Shown here in pieces: positions 17,584 to 59,103 of a stretch of DNA of 64,000 bases. Positions within the stretch are counted from its first letter, which is position 1; each line of letters opens with the position of its first letter. The notes beneath the pieces are model-generated. The model was not told the origin of the DNA, did no database searches, and saw only the letters and a list, made by a program, of their open reading frames with translations. The translations under genes were made by a program, and so were the position numbers. This DNA comes from Candidatus Micrarchaeota archaeon (lineage in GTDB: Archaea; Micrarchaeota; Micrarchaeia; Anstonellales; Bilamarchaeaceae): assembly GCA_038046805.1 (NCBI GenBank), contig JBBSVO010000003.1, forward strand, positions 147,120 to 211,119. Direction: 5' to 3'.

Positions 17584-17722
17584 TGTCAAGAACGACCTAT
17601 AAAACGGCAAACCGTTTTATGGTCCATTGAACGATTCGTCGTTCAATTGGACGTTTCGTTCTTGGGGATTTGAGAACCGAAAAGTTCTCAAAGTGCTCGT
17701 GATCGTTGCGACGATCGCGACA
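17584..17722. repeat. Branched palindromic element family A, copy 1
   Basis: TGTC..GACA-bounded; stem CAAGAACGA/TCGTTCTTG with internal hairpins; homologous to 50745-50858 with compensatory changes. Confidence 0.85.
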
Positions 17723-22975: not shown

Positions 22976-23716
22976 ATGAACTCCATTGAATTTCATAAAA
23001 CCGCGGATTTTAAACTGAAGAACCCTATAGTCGTGGTCGGCTTGCCAGGAACCGGGCTTGTTGGAAGCGTATCTGCATCGCACCTTACCGAAACCCTCGG
23101 ATTTACATTTGGTGGATATATTTCAAGCGATCAATTCGCACCGCTTGCAGCAATACACAACTATATTCCCATGCCTGCAGCACGAATCCATTATTCTGAA
23201 AAACATAATATGATAGTAATACTTTCAGAAATGACGATTCCGGTCGCATCTTCTCAGGAACTAGCAGACAAAATATTGGAATTTGCAAAAGCTGTCAAGG
23301 CAAAATATGTGGTGTCTCTTGGCGGGATATCAATGAACGAGGATGAAAACGCTGTGTACGTCGTCTCGAGCGATGCAAAGCTTTCACAACCGGTAATAGG
23401 AAAGCGCGGAATAAAACAGATAAAAGAAGGGGCAACAACAGGAGTAAGTGGAGTTCTTCTTGCAAAAAGCGCTCTTGAAAAATTCCCAGTTATATCTATT
23501 CTCGCAGAGGCTTCTGCAGACTATCTTGATCCGCATGCGGCTGCAAACGCGTTGGGAGCATTCTCGTTACTTACAGGGGTAACCATAAGCACGGTTGAAC
23601 TCGAAAAAGAAGCTGGAGAACTTTCAAAAGTAATAAAGGAGAATGTAATCAAATCAAAGATTCCGACAAAAAAGATTTCTAACATAAAAGATGAGGGCGG
23701 ATCCATGTATGGATGA
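22976..23716 (+). CDS. PAC2-family proteasome assembly chaperone (PbaA/PbaB-like)
   Basis: VGLPGTGLVG N-terminal motif, DPHAA, C-terminal HbYX-like MYG. Confidence 0.88.
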   Translation: MNSIEFHKTADFKLKNPIVVVGLPGTGLVGSVSASHLTETLGFTFGGYISSDQFAPLAAIHNYIPMPAARIHYSEKHNMIVILSEMTIPVASSQELADKILEFAKAVKAKYVVSLGGISMNEDENAVYVVSSDAKLSQPVIGKRGIKQIKEGATTGVSGVLLAKSALEKFPVISILAEASADYLDPHAAANALGAFSLLTGVTISTVELEKEAGELSKVIKENVIKSKIPTKKISNIKDEGGSMYG

Positions 23717-25529
23717 AAAATTTGCGAAAATTTTTCAGTATGGAGATTCGATAGAATTTTCATACAATAAAAAAATATTCTTGTTTGTGGGCATAGTGGC
23801 AGCTTTACTCATTCTTGCAGGCTGCATTAATATCCTAAATAGAGAGTGCCCGTCAAGCTGTAATGACGGAAATATCTGTACAGATGATTATTGCGGCGCA
23901 GACACAAATTACAAATGCGTCAATAAACCTCTAAGCGGAAGCCAGCCCGCATGCTCTGGATCAGTTACAGGAGCACCATGTGCAGTTATGGCATGTGACA
24001 GCGGAACATGTGTAACAAAAAACATCTCGAATTGTTGTGGAAATGCCAACTGCGAATATAATGAAGATATGGGTTCGTGTCCGCAGGACTGTAAAAACAG
24101 TGTTGAATTGAAATGCGGAACTGAAGGCACATTTGTCCCAATCCTTCTAAAACTGGAAAACGAGCTGGACAAAAGCTTCATCTCCTGCACGATAACGAAT
24201 AAAGGAAAAAAACCAATTGAAGCGATACTAACTGCAGAAATACCCGAGTGGAGTAATCAGTTTTCAAAGAACATATTTATAGCTCCGGATCAGAGCCAGA
24301 ACGTGAATATTTCACTTACATACAAGGACAAATTTTATTCAAATACCGAACTGGCAGATGCCACGGCACTCTTTACCGTTGAAAGTGCTGGCACTACTCT
24401 GTCTAAGGAATCAAGAAACATAAAAATAGCGCCAAAAGATAACATTGTATGGTATTACAATGCAAATGGAAAACAGTTGGATCTTTCTTATTCTGTAGTT
24501 GCATGGGTAACTCCGCACGATCCTTGCATAAAATCACTTATTTCTATTGCAAAAGAACTTCACCCAAAGAAAACGCTCGGTGGATACGCTGGATATGACG
24601 GAATGAACAAGCAAGAAAAAGAAGATAATACGCTTGCACAGTCAAAGGCTATTTACGAGGCAATAAAGGGACAGGGAATTTCATATGTGAATACGCCAGT
24701 AAGTTTTATTTCATCAGGCCAACAAGTGAAGCTTCCGTCCGAATCCCTTATGCAAAAATCAGGAAATTGTGTTGATGGTTCAGTATTGTTTGCATCTGCA
24801 TTTGAAGCACTTGGAATGAATACAATTATTGCATTCATCTCAGATCACACGTGGGTTGGCGTGGAAAGTTACCCGGGAAGCGGTCAGTTCATGTTTATCG
24901 AAACGACTATTGTTGAGGAGGCCTCTTTTGAACAGGCCATTGCTGAGGGGAAAAAGGAATTTGAACAAGAACAATTTTCAAAGGACTTCTTTATTATCCC
25001 AATTAACAAATACCGTACAAAGGTAAAACCATTCCCATCAGCAGTTAGCACCTGCCAGCTAAAGGCAAGCTGTGATGACGGAACTCCCGTTGGGCAATGC
25101 TCGGCACAGAAACCAAAGATGTGTATTGGAAACGAATTTGTAGACAAGGCACTTACATGCGGATGTTCTGAAGGGCACATAAGAATGGGCGATTCATGCG
25201 TTTCCGGCAAGCTTCGGGACGAAACTATTTCAATCAAAAAAGGATTTGCGTATTATTATGGAGGGGACCCTACAACAGAATCCCGTTTTGTGAAATATCG
25301 TTATGTAGTAAGTTCCAACGAGGCGATCGATATCAAGATGGTACCGTCAGAGGCCGATTACAACGGAATCCTTGCCAATGGTGCATATGACGAATACGGG
25401 GCATGTGGGGCCATAAGCAATAAGTTCTACAACCAAACCTGCACGATAAACCAAAAAGGCGGGATAGTGATATTAAACAACGGTATTGCCGAGGCGACCG
25501 TGAATCTGCAGGTTTTTGTTGAAGACTAA
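23709..25529 (+). CDS. Cys-rich surface (lipo)protein with transglutaminase-like domain
   Basis: Lipobox LILAGC; CNDGNICTDDYC and CCGNANCE..E...CPQDC repeats; GNCVD..H.W..F.ETT catalytic-type triad. Confidence 0.72.
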   Translation: MDEKFAKIFQYGDSIEFSYNKKIFLFVGIVAALLILAGCINILNRECPSSCNDGNICTDDYCGADTNYKCVNKPLSGSQPACSGSVTGAPCAVMACDSGTCVTKNISNCCGNANCEYNEDMGSCPQDCKNSVELKCGTEGTFVPILLKLENELDKSFISCTITNKGKKPIEAILTAEIPEWSNQFSKNIFIAPDQSQNVNISLTYKDKFYSNTELADATALFTVESAGTTLSKESRNIKIAPKDNIVWYYNANGKQLDLSYSVVAWVTPHDPCIKSLISIAKELHPKKTLGGYAGYDGMNKQEKEDNTLAQSKAIYEAIKGQGISYVNTPVSFISSGQQVKLPSESLMQKSGNCVDGSVLFASAFEALGMNTIIAFISDHTWVGVESYPGSGQFMFIETTIVEEASFEQAIAEGKKEFEQEQFSKDFFIIPINKYRTKVKPFPSAVSTCQLKASCDDGTPVGQCSAQKPKMCIGNEFVDKALTCGCSEGHIRMGDSCVSGKLRDETISIKKGFAYYYGGDPTTESRFVKYRYVVSSNEAIDIKMVPSEADYNGILANGAYDEYGACGAISNKFYNQTCTINQKGGIVILNNGIAEATVNLQVFVED

Positions 25530-27335: not shown

Positions 27336-28940
27336 TTAGGATTTTTTGAAGTTGAATATATTTACCCTTAGATTCTTGTTTTTCTCAAGACCGGATATGG
27401 CCCATGCCAACAAAACTTTCTTAGTTTCTAAATACCTCCCTTTTCCTACCTCCACATTACCTATAGCGTATCTCTTGTTGCGTGTATTGAAACAAAACAT
27501 AGATTCGTGCACATTCTCGCAGTTATGGCAGAAATAGCAGTCAGTGCAGTTGTTTGAATGGTCAACCTCAAAACAGCGGGTTATTCTGGTTGAGAAATGA
27601 GAGTTTATAGAAAACTGCGCGTACCGCACTTCCCTGCATCCAAAACAGTACTCGGAATTTCGTGGGCAAAAGCAAAAGGCGCACAAACGGGACCACATGT
27701 TCTGGATACCATGATAACAATCAGAGGCATCAATAACCAGCGGGCAATCAATGTTATTTTGAAGCTTGCCTGCGAGCCAGAACGGGCAGAAATAAGCAAT
27801 CTTGGAGATTATTGTTGCCGCATTCTCAAGCGCTAAATGAGTTACTTCATCTTCGCTGAGTAAAAGCTTTTCTCCGAAGAAATACGCCTCATCCTGCATA
27901 AGCAGCCTATTCCTTGGAAAATCAAGGAAACTGGCAAAATCAGGTAACAAAAGTGCCTTTCCAGATGCACAGGACTTTTCTTTGTCCAACCGGATACTGG
28001 AGGCATCTGAAAGCCATTCGGAATAATCATCTAATCTTTCAAGTGGCTTTCCAAACAAAATGCCAGTTGTCTGGGAAAACGCCTTTTCTATTCCGCCTTT
28101 TTCCGTATTTTTAGGTTGCACTGGTGGCAACTTTGGCGCAGCGGCTACCAGATAGGAATAGTCTGGTTTTTCCTTTTCAACCAGCTCTGTTATGAATGGG
28201 AGCCTCTTGTCTTTTTTCAGCCTTTCTCTGATTTCGGCAAGCAACTTGTCCTTGAGGGAATAATATTTATCTTTTGAAAGCGAAAGGTTTCCTATTACAT
28301 ACCTCTTTGATTTTAGGTTGAACGAAAACATACACTCCATGCAGCTTGAAAGACCGTGTGAATAGAAACAATCTGAAGAGAAATCTGCTTTTGAAGTCAT
28401 AAAACAACGCGTTGATTCGCTGATCTCATTTGATTTGATTGAAAAGGAGGATGGACCAAACGCATAACAACCAAAAATATTTTCGCTATAGCTTCCGCGC
28501 GTAGAGTATGCAACATTCTTTGAAAACGCAACCCTCTCGGAATGCAGGACATAATGACATTCGGTTATCGTAGTACTTTGATCAATAAAACTGGAATTTC
28601 CGAGGATTATGTTGCCAGTGTATGCAATGCGCTCCCCGAGGATGGAGAGGATTGAATCTATGTCTTTTACCTCATCTATGCCCAGCGAATCCGTTTTTCT
28701 GTTGAAATCGATCTCGTCGTAGCCAACAAAATTGAAATCGCGGGCGTAATTAGTGCTTGCACAGATCACTTCTTTTCCGGAAACATGTGATTTTTTAACA
28801 AGGCGCGGTCCGTTCCCTTCGTATAACCATTTGGCATAATCATCCAAGTCTCCGACTTGCTCTCCAAGAAGAATTTTGCATGTAGACTGCCATTGTTTAT
28901 TCAGGTTAGCATACAGGCCTGGATCCGTGCTTGAAGGCAT
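27336..28940 (-). CDS. Cys-rich internally duplicated repeat protein (paralog of 57418..59025)
   Basis: Two halves, each ending C..C.FxFNxxxKRYxIGN...Y; C/S-x2 periodic repeats suggest a beta-solenoid. Confidence 0.75.
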   Translation of the reverse strand: MPSSTDPGLYANLNKQWQSTCKILLGEQVGDLDDYAKWLYEGNGPRLVKKSHVSGKEVICASTNYARDFNFVGYDEIDFNRKTDSLGIDEVKDIDSILSILGERIAYTGNIILGNSSFIDQSTTITECHYVLHSERVAFSKNVAYSTRGSYSENIFGCYAFGPSSFSIKSNEISESTRCFMTSKADFSSDCFYSHGLSSCMECMFSFNLKSKRYVIGNLSLSKDKYYSLKDKLLAEIRERLKKDKRLPFITELVEKEKPDYSYLVAAAPKLPPVQPKNTEKGGIEKAFSQTTGILFGKPLERLDDYSEWLSDASSIRLDKEKSCASGKALLLPDFASFLDFPRNRLLMQDEAYFFGEKLLLSEDEVTHLALENAATIISKIAYFCPFWLAGKLQNNIDCPLVIDASDCYHGIQNMWSRLCAFCFCPRNSEYCFGCREVRYAQFSINSHFSTRITRCFEVDHSNNCTDCYFCHNCENVHESMFCFNTRNKRYAIGNVEVGKGRYLETKKVLLAWAISGLEKNKNLRVNIFNFKKS

Positions 28941-31473: not shown

Positions 31474-31562
31474 AGAACGACGCATCGTTCTTGAGCACTT
31501 CAAAAACGACGTCTCGTTTTTGAGGATTTTAGAACGGATCGCCGTTCTAAAAGTGCTCGCGA
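31474..31562. repeat. Branched palindromic element family A, variant copy upstream of cdc6
   Basis: AGAACGA-CGCA-TCGTTCT, GAGCACTT..AAGTGCTC enclosing two perfect hairpins, then GCGA; same module order as copies at 17584 and 50745. Confidence 0.75.
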
Positions 31563-50697: not shown

Positions 50698-50928
50698 TGT
50701 CAAAAACCACCAGTTAGAGACCTGGCTTGTTTATTTTTGACAGATGTCAAGAACGACCGATAAAACTTATCGAAGTTTTATGGTCCATAAATCGATGCGT
50801 CGATTTATCGGACGATTCGTTCTTGAGCATGTTCGTGACCGATGCGTCGGTCGCGACATAGATCTTCCCCATAGAACTGGTGTTTCTTGGGTGACCACCA
50901 GTTACAAACTGGTGGAATATCTAGATTT
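50698..50928. repeat. Repeat family B copy interrupted by a family A element
   Basis: Left arm TGTCAAAAACCACCAGTTAGAGACC..TTTTTGACAG and right arm GTGACCACCAGTTACAAACTGGTGGAATATCTAGATTT align to 9350-9466. Confidence 0.75.
50745..50858. repeat. Branched palindromic element family A, copy 2
   Basis: Aligns end-to-end with 17584-17722, with compensatory stem changes and a shorter third arm. Confidence 0.85.
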
Positions 50929-57417: not shown

Positions 57418-59025
57418 TCATTGGCGACCAGCACAATTGAGATTGTAAATATCCATCCCAAACTCTTTGTTCTTCTCCAGTCTCCTTAGCAATTCATCCA
57501 TTACAATCTTTTTTACTTCCATGTATTTCTCCCGCCCAACCTCAACATTGGCAATAGCATACCGTTTGCTCTTCGTATTGAAACAAAACATGCAATTATC
57601 CAGATTCTCGGAATTATGGCAGAACATTGAGTTCGCGCAATTATTGCACCCGTTCATTTCTAGGCACGCAGTCATATTGGTGCAACCATGGCACCTTATG
57701 CAAAATTTTGAATGAACCGCACGCTGGCAACCAAATACGTTTTCCGAGGCAACTGCCATATTGCAATATGCGCAGTTTTTCGAATGCGCGCAATCCTCAA
57801 CCTGATAGCTGTTCGCAACGCAATAGGTGACATGAGACTCGATATTATTGACCGAATTTCCCTCGGTAACATTAGTCGGGAAAAAGGCGACGCCGGCAAG
57901 TTTTGCGGCAAGCTGGCCAAGCCCTAGTGTTTCGCCTTCCTTAAGCTCCATCTTCATTCTGGAAGCATGCTCGGATTCATGGCAGGAGATAACCCTGTCT
58001 TTTGGCACTGAACCGAAAAACGTAAATGAAGGAGAGAACCAGACCGTATTTCCAAACGAAGTTGGATGTGATTTAACTGAGTTTATTCCATGAGTAAGAA
58101 ACTTCTGGTTTTCATTTAGTCCGCCGATTTCTTTTCCGAATATTACCCTGCACGTGTCATGGAACGCAGTGTCGAGTTTGTTGAAGTCTTGTTCCGGCAG
58201 TTTGAACGCAAATTTCGGCATAACTGGAGCTTTTGGCATTCCGGGAATTACGAACGGCGGATAGAACCTTTTGTGTTTCTCGATATATTCACGAATCTCC
58301 ACAATGAGCTTGTCCTTTAATTGCAAATATCGTTCTCTCGGCAATTCGAGATTCCCGATGCAGTATCGCTTTCCCTTTTGGTTAAATGAAAACATAAGGT
58401 GCGCGCAATCAAAATTGTAATAACTGCAGTAAACATCAGATACCGACGCGGAAAAATACGATTCAAAGGCGCGGATAAGCGTTCCTTCAATCACGTGTAT
58501 TGCATATTTACTGCTCGGGGAATATGCGCATCCGAATGTGTATTCCGCCCCGTCCCGCATGTAAGAAGAATACGCCACATATTTTGAGCCGTGAATGTTG
58601 TGCGAATTCTTTACGCAGAAACTGTCAACGCAATTGTCGCTGATTTCGATTTGTTCCGAACGTCCGAATTTCTTGTTTCCAGTATAAATTACTCTTTCCT
58701 GTATCGCCTCAACAATGGAATCAACGTCCTTTATTTCATTAATTCCGAGAGGATTGAACGGCGCACCGTTCAAATTTTGAAAAAACAGTGGTTTTTTCAA
58801 CGGCTCGAATTTTTTGTTCCAGTCAATCTCGTCCTGTGAAATAAATTTTGCGGTTTCAAGATAGCTCGAACTGGAGACCATAACTGGTTTTCCTGATACT
58901 GAGGATGTTTTTTGCCCAAGCGGAACCTGGTAACTGAGCAGCCAATCCTTTACTTCATCCATCTCCACGTTGCACTCACCCAAAAGAAGCTTGTACGTGA
59001 ATTTGAATGCCTGATTGATGTCCAT
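57418..59025 (-). CDS. Cys-rich internally duplicated repeat protein carrying a 17-aa palindrome-derived insertion
   Basis: Paralog of 27336..28940 (EIKDVDSI vs EVKDIDSI; CFNTKSKRYAIANVEVG vs CFNTRNKRYAIGNVEVG). Confidence 0.75.
   Translation of the reverse strand: MDINQAFKFTYKLLLGECNVEMDEVKDWLLSYQVPLGQKTSSVSGKPVMVSSSSYLETAKFISQDEIDWNKKFEPLKKPLFFQNLNGAPFNPLGINEIKDVDSIVEAIQERVIYTGNKKFGRSEQIEISDNCVDSFCVKNSHNIHGSKYVAYSSYMRDGAEYTFGCAYSPSSKYAIHVIEGTLIRAFESYFSASVSDVYCSYYNFDCAHLMFSFNQKGKRYCIGNLELPRERYLQLKDKLIVEIREYIEKHKRFYPPFVIPGMPKAPVMPKFAFKLPEQDFNKLDTAFHDTCRVIFGKEIGGLNENQKFLTHGINSVKSHPTSFGNTVWFSPSFTFFGSVPKDRVISCHESEHASRMKMELKEGETLGLGQLAAKLAGVAFFPTNVTEGNSVNNIESHVTYCVANSYQVEDCAHSKNCAYCNMAVASENVFGCQRAVHSKFCIRCHGCTNMTACLEMNGCNNCANSMFCHNSENLDNCMFCFNTKSKRYAIANVEVGREKYMEVKKIVMDELLRRLEKNKEFGMDIYNLNCAGRQ
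58747..58800. repeat. In-frame double-hairpin insertion related to family A
   Basis: TTGAACGG-CGCA-CCGTTCAA and TTGAAAAAAC-AGTG-GTTTTTTCAA; absent in the paralog. Confidence 0.7.
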
Positions 59026-59063
59026 GAATTGATTATGTATTACATTATATTTTAATTCTAACA

Positions 59064-59103
59064 ATCAAAAATTGCACAAAATACGAATATTTTATAAAGA
59101 AAT
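59064..59103 (+). promoter_or_regulatory. Conserved promoter/operator upstream of tandem Lrp gene (copy 2)
   Basis: ATCAAAAATTGCACAAAATACGAATATTTTATAAAGAAAT matches 2526-2565. Confidence 0.55.

Follow-up and report, generated by a model that had tools for sequence, protein, structure and literature searches.

Here we describe a small double-hairpin insertion within a protein-coding gene of a Micrarchaeota archaeon. The stretch of DNA analysed (hereafter the window) is 64,000 nucleotides (nt) long and corresponds to G000:C3:147120-211119, where G000 is the source genome, a 1.2-Mb Micrarchaeota metagenome-assembled genome (MAG) comprising 16 contigs and 86% complete. The gene that carries the insertion (hereafter the host gene) encodes a member of a Cys-rich protein family with many paralogs, and the insertion and its immediate surroundings consist of the following features:

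57418..59025, minus strand: host gene, a 535-residue member of the Cys-rich paralog family, as given in the list of open reading frames (ORFs).
58750..58800, minus strand: in-frame double-hairpin insertion of 51 nt, encoding LKKPLFFQNLNGAPFNP, residues 76-92 of 535.
58777..58800, no strand assigned: hairpin A, a perfect stem of 10 base pairs (bp), TTGAAAAAAC/GTTTTTTCAA, with a 4-nt loop.
58754..58773, no strand assigned: hairpin B, a perfect 8-bp stem, TTGAACGG/CCGTTCAA, with a 4-nt loop; core GAACG-N6-CGTTC.
58801..58812, minus strand: left target flank, AAATTCGAGCCG in mRNA sense, codons K-F-E-P; it resembles the element-internal AAATTTGAACGG.
58741..58749, minus strand: right target flank, CTCGGAATT in mRNA sense, codons L-G-I of the conserved LGINEIKD.

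On the plus strand, the 51 nt are composed of the two hairpins plus 4 leading and 3 linking bases. The two inverted repeats are each 100% complementary (58754-58761/58766-58773, 8 nt, and 58777-58786/58791-58800, 10 nt), with 4 nt between the arms, in agreement with an earlier note on this DNA that had described the extra sequence as almost entirely two perfect hairpins. The same note had placed the insertion at 58747-58800, with the peptide KKPLFFQNLNGAPFNPL; the segment was correctly recognized, but its position is shifted by one Leu codon relative to 58750-58800. The exact edges, between CCG^TTG and CCT^CTC on the mRNA strand, were fixed using a filled/empty ortholog pair of a paralog, filled in a congeneric genome (G001; 109 contigs, 84% complete) and empty in the source genome. 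The region folds as two independent hairpins, and its fold energy is unexceptional (-24.3 kcal/mol for 111 nt, z -1.58; 13 of 200 shuffles were as good). Stop codons are absent from three of the six phases of the 51-mer. Since its length is 51 nt and the phase that is used has no stop codon, the gene stays open.

The protein has 17 extra residues relative to a paralog within the window, as the earlier note had observed and as BLASTP reproduces:

27336..28940, minus strand: in-window paralog without the insertion, 34% identical to the host protein (BLASTP), with one 17-residue gap.

At only 34% identity this gap proves little, and the proof comes from close orthologs. The 90% protein cluster has seven members, of which one is bare, four carry a different 14-residue insert and two (P0121 and P0122) have the form seen in the window. 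The bare member, P0125, is a 91% identical ortholog that reads DEIDFGKKFEPLGINEIKD at the site, and the unrelated 14-residue insert is found in P0001, P0123, P0124 and P0126, the last being the ortholog from the congeneric genome. Across a broader set, the segment from DEID to EIKD spans 16-23 residues in 114 of 120 aligned homologs and is longer in the remaining six (33, 33, 35, 36, 36 and 39 residues), the window protein having 36. The insert is absent from a close ortholog and from most homologs and is thus a young, lineage-specific insertion, the outcome anticipated by the earlier note when it proposed a homolog alignment. Among the 259 family proteins compared, the insert peptide is present in only three genes (P0050, P0065 and P0121/P0122), each with palindromic DNA; the situation that the note had named as contrary to its reading, a segment widespread in homologs that lack the palindromes, is therefore not what is found.

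What is new is that one 51-mer recurs at one codon of three diverged paralogs in three genomes. P0050, a paralog from the congeneric genome that is 41% identical to the window protein, contains a 51-nt insert at the same codon; 48 of its 51 bases match the window, and two of the three differences amount to the exchange of a C:G for a T:A pair in stem A. The ortholog of P0050 in the source genome (85% identical) has an empty site. In P0065, from a third Micrarchaeota MAG (G041; 35% identical), the insert again lies between FEP and L. A pattern scan for the genic doublet in 185,579 species, with one genome each, returned only these two loci, both genic, and a pattern scan of metagenomes returned a single locus identical to the copy in P0050.

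The three genic copies are far more similar to each other than are the genes around them. Although the host proteins are 35-41% identical, the elements agree pairwise at 48, 43 and 41 of 51 positions, with 32 of 51 common to all three. For the same pairs, the right flanks agree at 57, 57 and 56 of 90 positions (15, 11 and 10 of 30 third codon positions), and the last 30 nt of the left flank at 12-15 of 30. Thus the element either is much more recent than the split between its hosts or is strongly constrained as nucleic acid, and its flanks do not travel with it. When the three genic doublets are aligned with three intergenic ones, standard pairing is seen in 107 of 108 stem cells. Changes affect both sides in 5 of 18 pairs and one side only in none, a value that was not reached in any of 500 shuffles; two of the five double-sided changes reflect a difference in register of TTG and TTTG forms, which is still symmetric. 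The residues encoded by stem A differ among the genic copies (KKPLFF, KKSPFF and KNHQIF). Since these residues vary while pairing is kept, it is the fold, not the peptide, that is conserved.

The empty targets, inferred or observed, read TTCGAGCCG^CTCGGA, TTTGAACCG^CTCAAC and TTTGAACCA^TTGAAT. The left flank resembles the linker and hairpin-B arm of the element itself (AAATTTGAACGG), with 11 of 12 positions shared in the paralog from the congeneric genome. The same junction has received other DNA. In the congeneric ortholog of the host gene (L004:1700-1790, G001:C82), it holds an unrelated 42-nt insert that is bounded by a perfect 10-nt direct repeat, TTTGAACCGC, and is built of CGRRAC-like heptamers recurring at several other sites of that genome, and in P0052 it holds yet another long segment. 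The FEP^L junction is an insertion hot spot.

A second in-frame doublet is located in the gene for isoleucyl-tRNA synthetase (IleRS; G000:C2:89255-92227, minus strand). The doublet, 54 nt at G000:C2:90222-90275, encodes KNKILRFCSDWKFDNFQQ, forms perfect hairpins of 11 and 9 bp, is stop-free in four of six phases and is flanked by the KMSKS region and the part of the enzyme that binds the anticodon. Exactly these 54 nt are missing from the IleRS gene of the congeneric genome, the flanks being ~90% identical. Just downstream of the doublet there is also a 21-nt low-complexity indel. A candidate for a third in-frame doublet, at G000:C6:25748, was rejected; it lies in an over-extended ORF call and not in a peptidase.

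Hairpins of this kind are abundant in the source genome. A census of perfect hairpins (stems 9-12 bp, loops 3-8 nt) found 182 with stems of at least 9 bp, as compared with 30-42 in simulations. Gene calls here are crude ORF calls that take the first start codon, by which ~90% of the DNA is coding; relative to these calls, 128 hairpins are intergenic, 18 overlap a gene end and 36 are internal, many of the last lying at most 150 nt from the called 5' end and probably upstream of the true start. Adjacent pairs of perfect hairpins (stems of at least 8 bp, gap of at most 10 nt) number 58, with none in each of four first-order Markov simulations used as controls. There are 51 tandem clusters, 44 of them intergenic. 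The spacers that hold clusters are divergent in 15 cases, co-directional in 21 and convergent in 5, roughly in proportion to spacer length, and the clusters are thus not simply terminators. In near-perfect hairpins, counted irrespective of the direction of transcription, G·T and A·C mismatches are equally frequent (15 and 15 of 74). The core GAACG-N6-CGTTC is found at 52, 68 and 23 sites in the source, congeneric and third genomes, respectively (reversed control: 0, 1 and 0). Doublets built like the genic one (TTTGAAAAAC.. followed by TTTGAACG..) lie between genes at G000:C3:97935-97986, G000:C1:54333-54383 and G001:C12:13321-13368, and the last of these is a 51-nt presence/absence difference. 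Members of the family within the window include the arms that the earlier note had reported at ~17624 and ~31522, which are present at 17626-17647 and 31527-31552:

17599..17692, no strand assigned: three family hairpins in an intergenic cluster, including ATTGAACGA-TTCG-TCGTTCAAT (C3:164718-164811).
23715..23765, no strand assigned: 51-nt intergenic double-hairpin insertion of the TGAAAAATTT.. type (C3:170834), absent from the congeneric genome, with clean flanks and no duplicated bases.
31500..31552, no strand assigned: family hairpin doublet, TCAAAAACGA.. and TTTTAGAACGG.. (C3:178619-178671).
50760..50808, no strand assigned: intergenic family hairpin doublet (C3:197879-197927).

Alignment of the source and congeneric genomes (771 kb aligned) yielded 746 indels of at least 12 nt. 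We analysed the 60 indels of at least 20 nt that have clean flanks, of which 20 are hairpin-rich; 29 unstructured indels served for comparison. Hairpin-rich indels range from 36 to 152 nt, and their lengths include 51, 51, 54, 54, 58 and 59 nt. The distance over which the gap can slide, which would be larger after target duplication, has a median of 2 nt (0-7) in this class and 1 nt (0-9) in the unstructured class, and is 0 at the genic site. The two classes being alike in this respect, hairpin modules are gained and lost without regular target duplication. The idea that targets are the loops of hairpin-prone sites seemed to hold at a few hand-picked sites but was rejected, since the empty sites of the 20 clean events do not fold better than controls (mean -1.02 and -1.46 kcal/mol, respectively).

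Other hairpin-rich inserts were observed in the course of this comparison. Two tRNA-like genes of the congeneric genome (C88 near 13152, and the site matching G000:C9:12437) carry hairpin-rich inserts of 45 and 36 nt, both at one D-loop position (AGCY^TGG), which the source genome lacks. No strict bulge-helix-bulge fits the 45-nt insert. ARAGORN recognized neither of these tRNA-like stretches as a tRNA, and it called none in either version of the first locus. An Rfam scan of the window itself at gathering thresholds returned a single tRNA and nothing else. Hairpin indels internal to ORFs at G000:C4:99766 (48 nt), at G000:C7:134426 (48 nt) and at the congeneric site matching G000:C13:18578-18585 (26+28 nt) have lengths that, singly or summed, are multiples of three, and may be further in-frame insertions involving other hairpin types.

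The source genome contains a single Y1_Tnp gene (C3:134483-134830, minus strand, 102 bits). In NCBIfam, its product matches the IS200 model NF033573 with 103 bits (cut-off 55), as opposed to 22.7 bits (cut-off 80) for NF047646, the model for transposases associated with repetitive extragenic palindromic (REP) sequences. The gene is part of an IS200-type insertion sequence (IS) of ~850 nt (G000:C3:about 134355-135200), which lies 12 kb before the window and is absent from the syntenic site of the congeneric genome. The ends of this IS form similar hairpins of their own, ACGGCT-NA-AGCCGT, to be contrasted with the family core GAACG..CGTTC, and five family hairpins are found inside it, in the 280-nt spacer upstream of tnpA. 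The Tyr motif of the protein reads YIEGH, compared with Y...Q for typical IS200 proteins as described in the available part of PMC6006769. In the congeneric genome, Y1 is represented by a gene fragment only, but this genome has specific insertions of its own. Y1_Tnp is present in 13 of the 41 relatives searched, and their TnpA loci (45% identity at best) are too distant for IS ends to be compared.

The host protein is 535 residues long when read from ATG and 548 when read from an upstream TTG at 59064. Its 185 homologs, where named, all come from Micrarchaeota-type MAGs. The source genome contains 21 matches, and full-length paralogs number ~20 per genome, with similar numbers in some relatives. 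Paralogs are often arranged in tandem arrays, half-size neighbouring genes match the N- and C-terminal halves, and Cys-rich repeats are located in the C-terminal half. Pfam assigned no family to the host protein or to the in-window paralog, and a Foldseek search of the AlphaFold model against the PDB gave no match at E<=0.001. The AlphaFold2 model of the host protein (22-sequence alignment) has a mean pLDDT of 75.6 and a pTM of 0.79. In the 548-residue form, pLDDT falls below 50 in the N-terminal 12 residues and in residues 87-103, which form the only internal segment of this kind; the insert corresponds to residues 89-105, preceded by a strand (74-76) and followed by a helix (114-124). On this prediction, the 17 inserted residues most likely form a disordered surface loop, the expected place for a tolerated insertion.

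Taken together, these data make it likely that 58750-58800 is a non-autonomous double-hairpin element, similar to REPs and to Rickettsia palindromic elements (RPEs), that was inserted at a hot-spot codon and is probably translated as a 17-residue loop. An insertion process resembling that of RPEs had been suggested by the earlier note, and it is borne out by the lineage-specific insert, by a family of hairpin doublets that is polymorphic between congeners and by the second in-frame case in IleRS. A copy of the element would have entered the conserved K-F-E-P-L between its Pro and Leu codons without duplicating the target site, most likely providing the product with 17 additional residues in a disordered surface loop. 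The element may move as DNA, by a copy-and-paste route via single-stranded or template-switch intermediates, into a target that resembles part of the element. The resident IS200 transposase would not be the mover; candidates for this role are a host process that acts on single-stranded or stalled-fork DNA (template switching) and an unrecognised enzyme. Constraint would bear on the nucleic-acid fold rather than on the peptide, and the segment would be translated without being useful, the protein simply tolerating it. Two kinds of pathway worked out by hand, circle integration and simple template switching, were rejected, since neither yields one flank followed by hairpin A, hairpin B and the other flank, in that order.

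Several observations weigh against an element of this kind. The source and congeneric genomes are both incomplete (86% and 84%, respectively). The only Y1 transposase of the source genome belongs to an ordinary IS200 with different end hairpins. In the species scan, the genic doublet was found nowhere outside the host family, and spread among paralogs by recombination is possible. One occupied paralog per genome, out of ~20, is odd for an efficient site-specific element. Finally, eight more hairpin-rich indels lie inside called ORFs and, as single gaps, are not multiples of three; six of these are at most 150 nt from the called 5' end, and two adjacent ones in C13 sum to 54 nt. A more specific proposal, which we put forward only tentatively, is that the 51-mer is a protein-less, site-specific 'homing' mini-element, which would recognize one conserved codon junction of a large paralog family by its own similarity to that target (AAATTTGAAC[C/G]G) and by single-stranded DNA structure, and would copy itself into this junction in different Micrarchaeota genomes by means of an enzyme of host replication or repair. 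If true, this would constitute a new route for selfish DNA into coding sequence and a steady supply of new protein loops in genome-reduced archaea.

Recurrence at one codon could also result from a single entry into one paralog followed by ectopic gene conversion or recombination via the motifs DEID..KFEP and L.INEIKDIDS. All exact doublet copies, those from the species scan together with that in the window, are indeed found in the host family at the FEP^L codon, the site is within the best conserved block of the family, and there are ~20 paralogs per genome, often in tandem. However, identity falls at the edges of the element (12-15 of 30 on the left; 56-57 of 90 on the right, with 10-15 of 30 third positions), and a conversion tract would therefore have to end within 3-9 nt of microhomology. 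Moreover, the filled paralog of the congeneric genome and its empty ortholog differ at 3 of 30 flanking positions with no foreign patch, and intergenic sites unrelated to this one show clear gain and loss of related doublets. We thus regard spread by conversion as unlikely. Mobilization in trans by the single IS200/IS605-type Y1 (HUH) transposase, as for REPs and their REP-associated tyrosine transposases (RAYTs), appears improbable. The presence of one Y1_Tnp gene with five family hairpins in the adjacent 280-nt spacer would fit such a role, as would insertion without target duplication, which is also a property of IS200/IS605 transposition in the available part of PMC6006769. By contrast, the protein matched the IS200 model and failed the REP-associated one; its IS is missing from the syntenic congeneric site, has different end hairpins and contains family doublets like passengers; the congeneric genome has its own insertions with a Y1 fragment only; and Y1_Tnp was found in 13 of the 41 relatives searched.

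We also give little credence to the double hairpin being kept for a role in the gene family, such as slowing of the ribosome or marking DNA for recombination or nicking. Compensatory changes do keep pairing while residues change, 32 of 51 positions are identical in the three genic copies although the host flanks are saturated at synonymous sites, and two other unrelated insertions at the same codon (14 residues in the congeneric ortholog, longer in P0052) mark the site as special. Yet the doublet is confined to 3 genes among 259 family proteins and is missing from close orthologs, related doublets behave identically in non-coding DNA and in IleRS, and perfect stems could equally stem from youth or from templated correction of palindromes. 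Birth of the segment in situ, by slippage, duplication and palindrome formation, would explain why the left flank AAATTTGAACCG resembles hairpin B and the linker (11 of 12 in the congeneric paralog), and the 42-nt insert of the congeneric ortholog, with its 10-nt direct repeat, bears the mark of duplication or template switching. It is nonetheless very improbable, since 41-48 identical bases of 51 are not attainable independently in three diverged genes and free-standing relatives of the doublet occur between genes. Least credible is that the 51 nt are an archaeal intron which the splicing endonuclease cuts out of the mRNA. Without the 51 nt the protein would again read KFEP-LGINE, the family consensus, and hairpin-rich insertions of similar style interrupt the D-loop region in two tRNA-like genes of the congeneric genome, which would require their excision. 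However, a search with strict bulge-helix-bulge criteria, two bulges of 3 nt on either side of a helix of 4 bp, revealed no motif that would excise the 51 or 54 nt at the boundaries of the three genic 51-mers or of the IleRS 54-mer, which agrees with the view of the earlier note that splicing was less likely. Weak candidates number 4-6 per region, in line with the shuffle mean of 3.0, the fold consists of two independent hairpins, and every confirmed copy deep within a gene has a length divisible by three and no stop codon in the phase used, neither of which splicing needs.

Several known systems resemble the double-hairpin element in part. According to the available part of PMC10969869, RPEs insert in frame into unrelated genes, lengthen the product and are also found in intergenic DNA. 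Similarities to RPEs are a multi-copy palindromic family within one genome and in-frame copies in ORFs that are left open (the host gene and IleRS). However, RPEs are ~150 bp long (size range about 100-150 bp; PMC10969869). They have family-specific conserved peptides and reside in bacteria. The archaeal elements are 51-54 nt long and consist of two perfect mini-hairpins, are unrelated to RPEs in sequence and fall outside RPE-1 to -10 of Rickettsia, and one subfamily is limited to a single codon of one gene family. The likeness to RPEs is thus supported as an analogy, and the element belongs to no named family.

With REP, BIME and REPIN sequences, the hairpins share a short palindromic unit (REPs are 20-40 nt), many copies, frequent dimers and a mostly intergenic location. 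Intragenic REP dimers in bacteria add 20-30 residues to proteins, tRNA synthetases included, in the available part of PMC3733652, which also gives a conserved GTAG or CGTC tag at one end of the palindrome as a feature of REPs. Unlike in REP/RAYT systems, there is no REP-associated transposase flanked by repeats, stem sequences vary with only the GAACG/CGTTC core in common, and divergent, tandem and convergent spacers are occupied evenly, REPs by contrast being found preferentially at 3' ends. Among Y1 proteins, only the IS200 type was found in Archaea according to the available part of PMC6006769. Miniature inverted-repeat transposable elements are also small, non-autonomous repeats with hairpin potential, but the elements described here have no fixed-length target duplication and share no terminal inverted repeats with an autonomous IS. 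Like palindrome-associated elements of the IS200/IS605 type, they insert without target duplication, but their hairpins are unlike the ends of the resident IS200. The double-hairpin elements and GC clusters of fungal mitochondria also have two adjacent stem-loops, are mobile and occur both between and within genes; this likeness is one of form only. The double-hairpin elements of Allomyces mitochondria are G+C-rich and organellar, in contrast to the A+T-rich, chromosomal elements of this archaeon.

Palindromic elements that lengthen proteins in the bacterial style thus probably exist in archaea too. A literature search, with subscription journals outside its scope, found no account of such elements in Micrarchaeota or other DPANN archaea. 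In-frame palindromic repeats are a textbook oddity of Rickettsia and a few bacteria. Here they are found in a DPANN archaeon with a 1.2-Mb genome, as much smaller units (51-54 nt), in the housekeeping IleRS gene and in a lineage-specific gene family. The system lends itself to studying the movement of hairpin repeats in the absence of a dedicated transposase and of target duplication, and the frequency with which such repeats give rise to new loops in proteins.

In practical terms, inserts of this type may interrupt short-read assemblies and lead gene prediction astray. A search of sequencing runs for this DNA listed none from RNA, and four groundwater DNA runs were compared with positions 58300-59100. 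In the three runs of low depth, contigs stop at 58721, 58741 and 58784 and resume at 58775, 58779 and 58810; no contig of these runs joins across the insert and none shows an empty allele, and either the palindromes or the low depth could break the contigs. The public gene call for P0122, which has the same sequence as window positions 57418..58770 and is found on contigs of up to 52 kb, starts at a TTG inside hairpin B (MNGAPFNPLGIN..), either because the caller was misled by the insert or because that assembly differs upstream.

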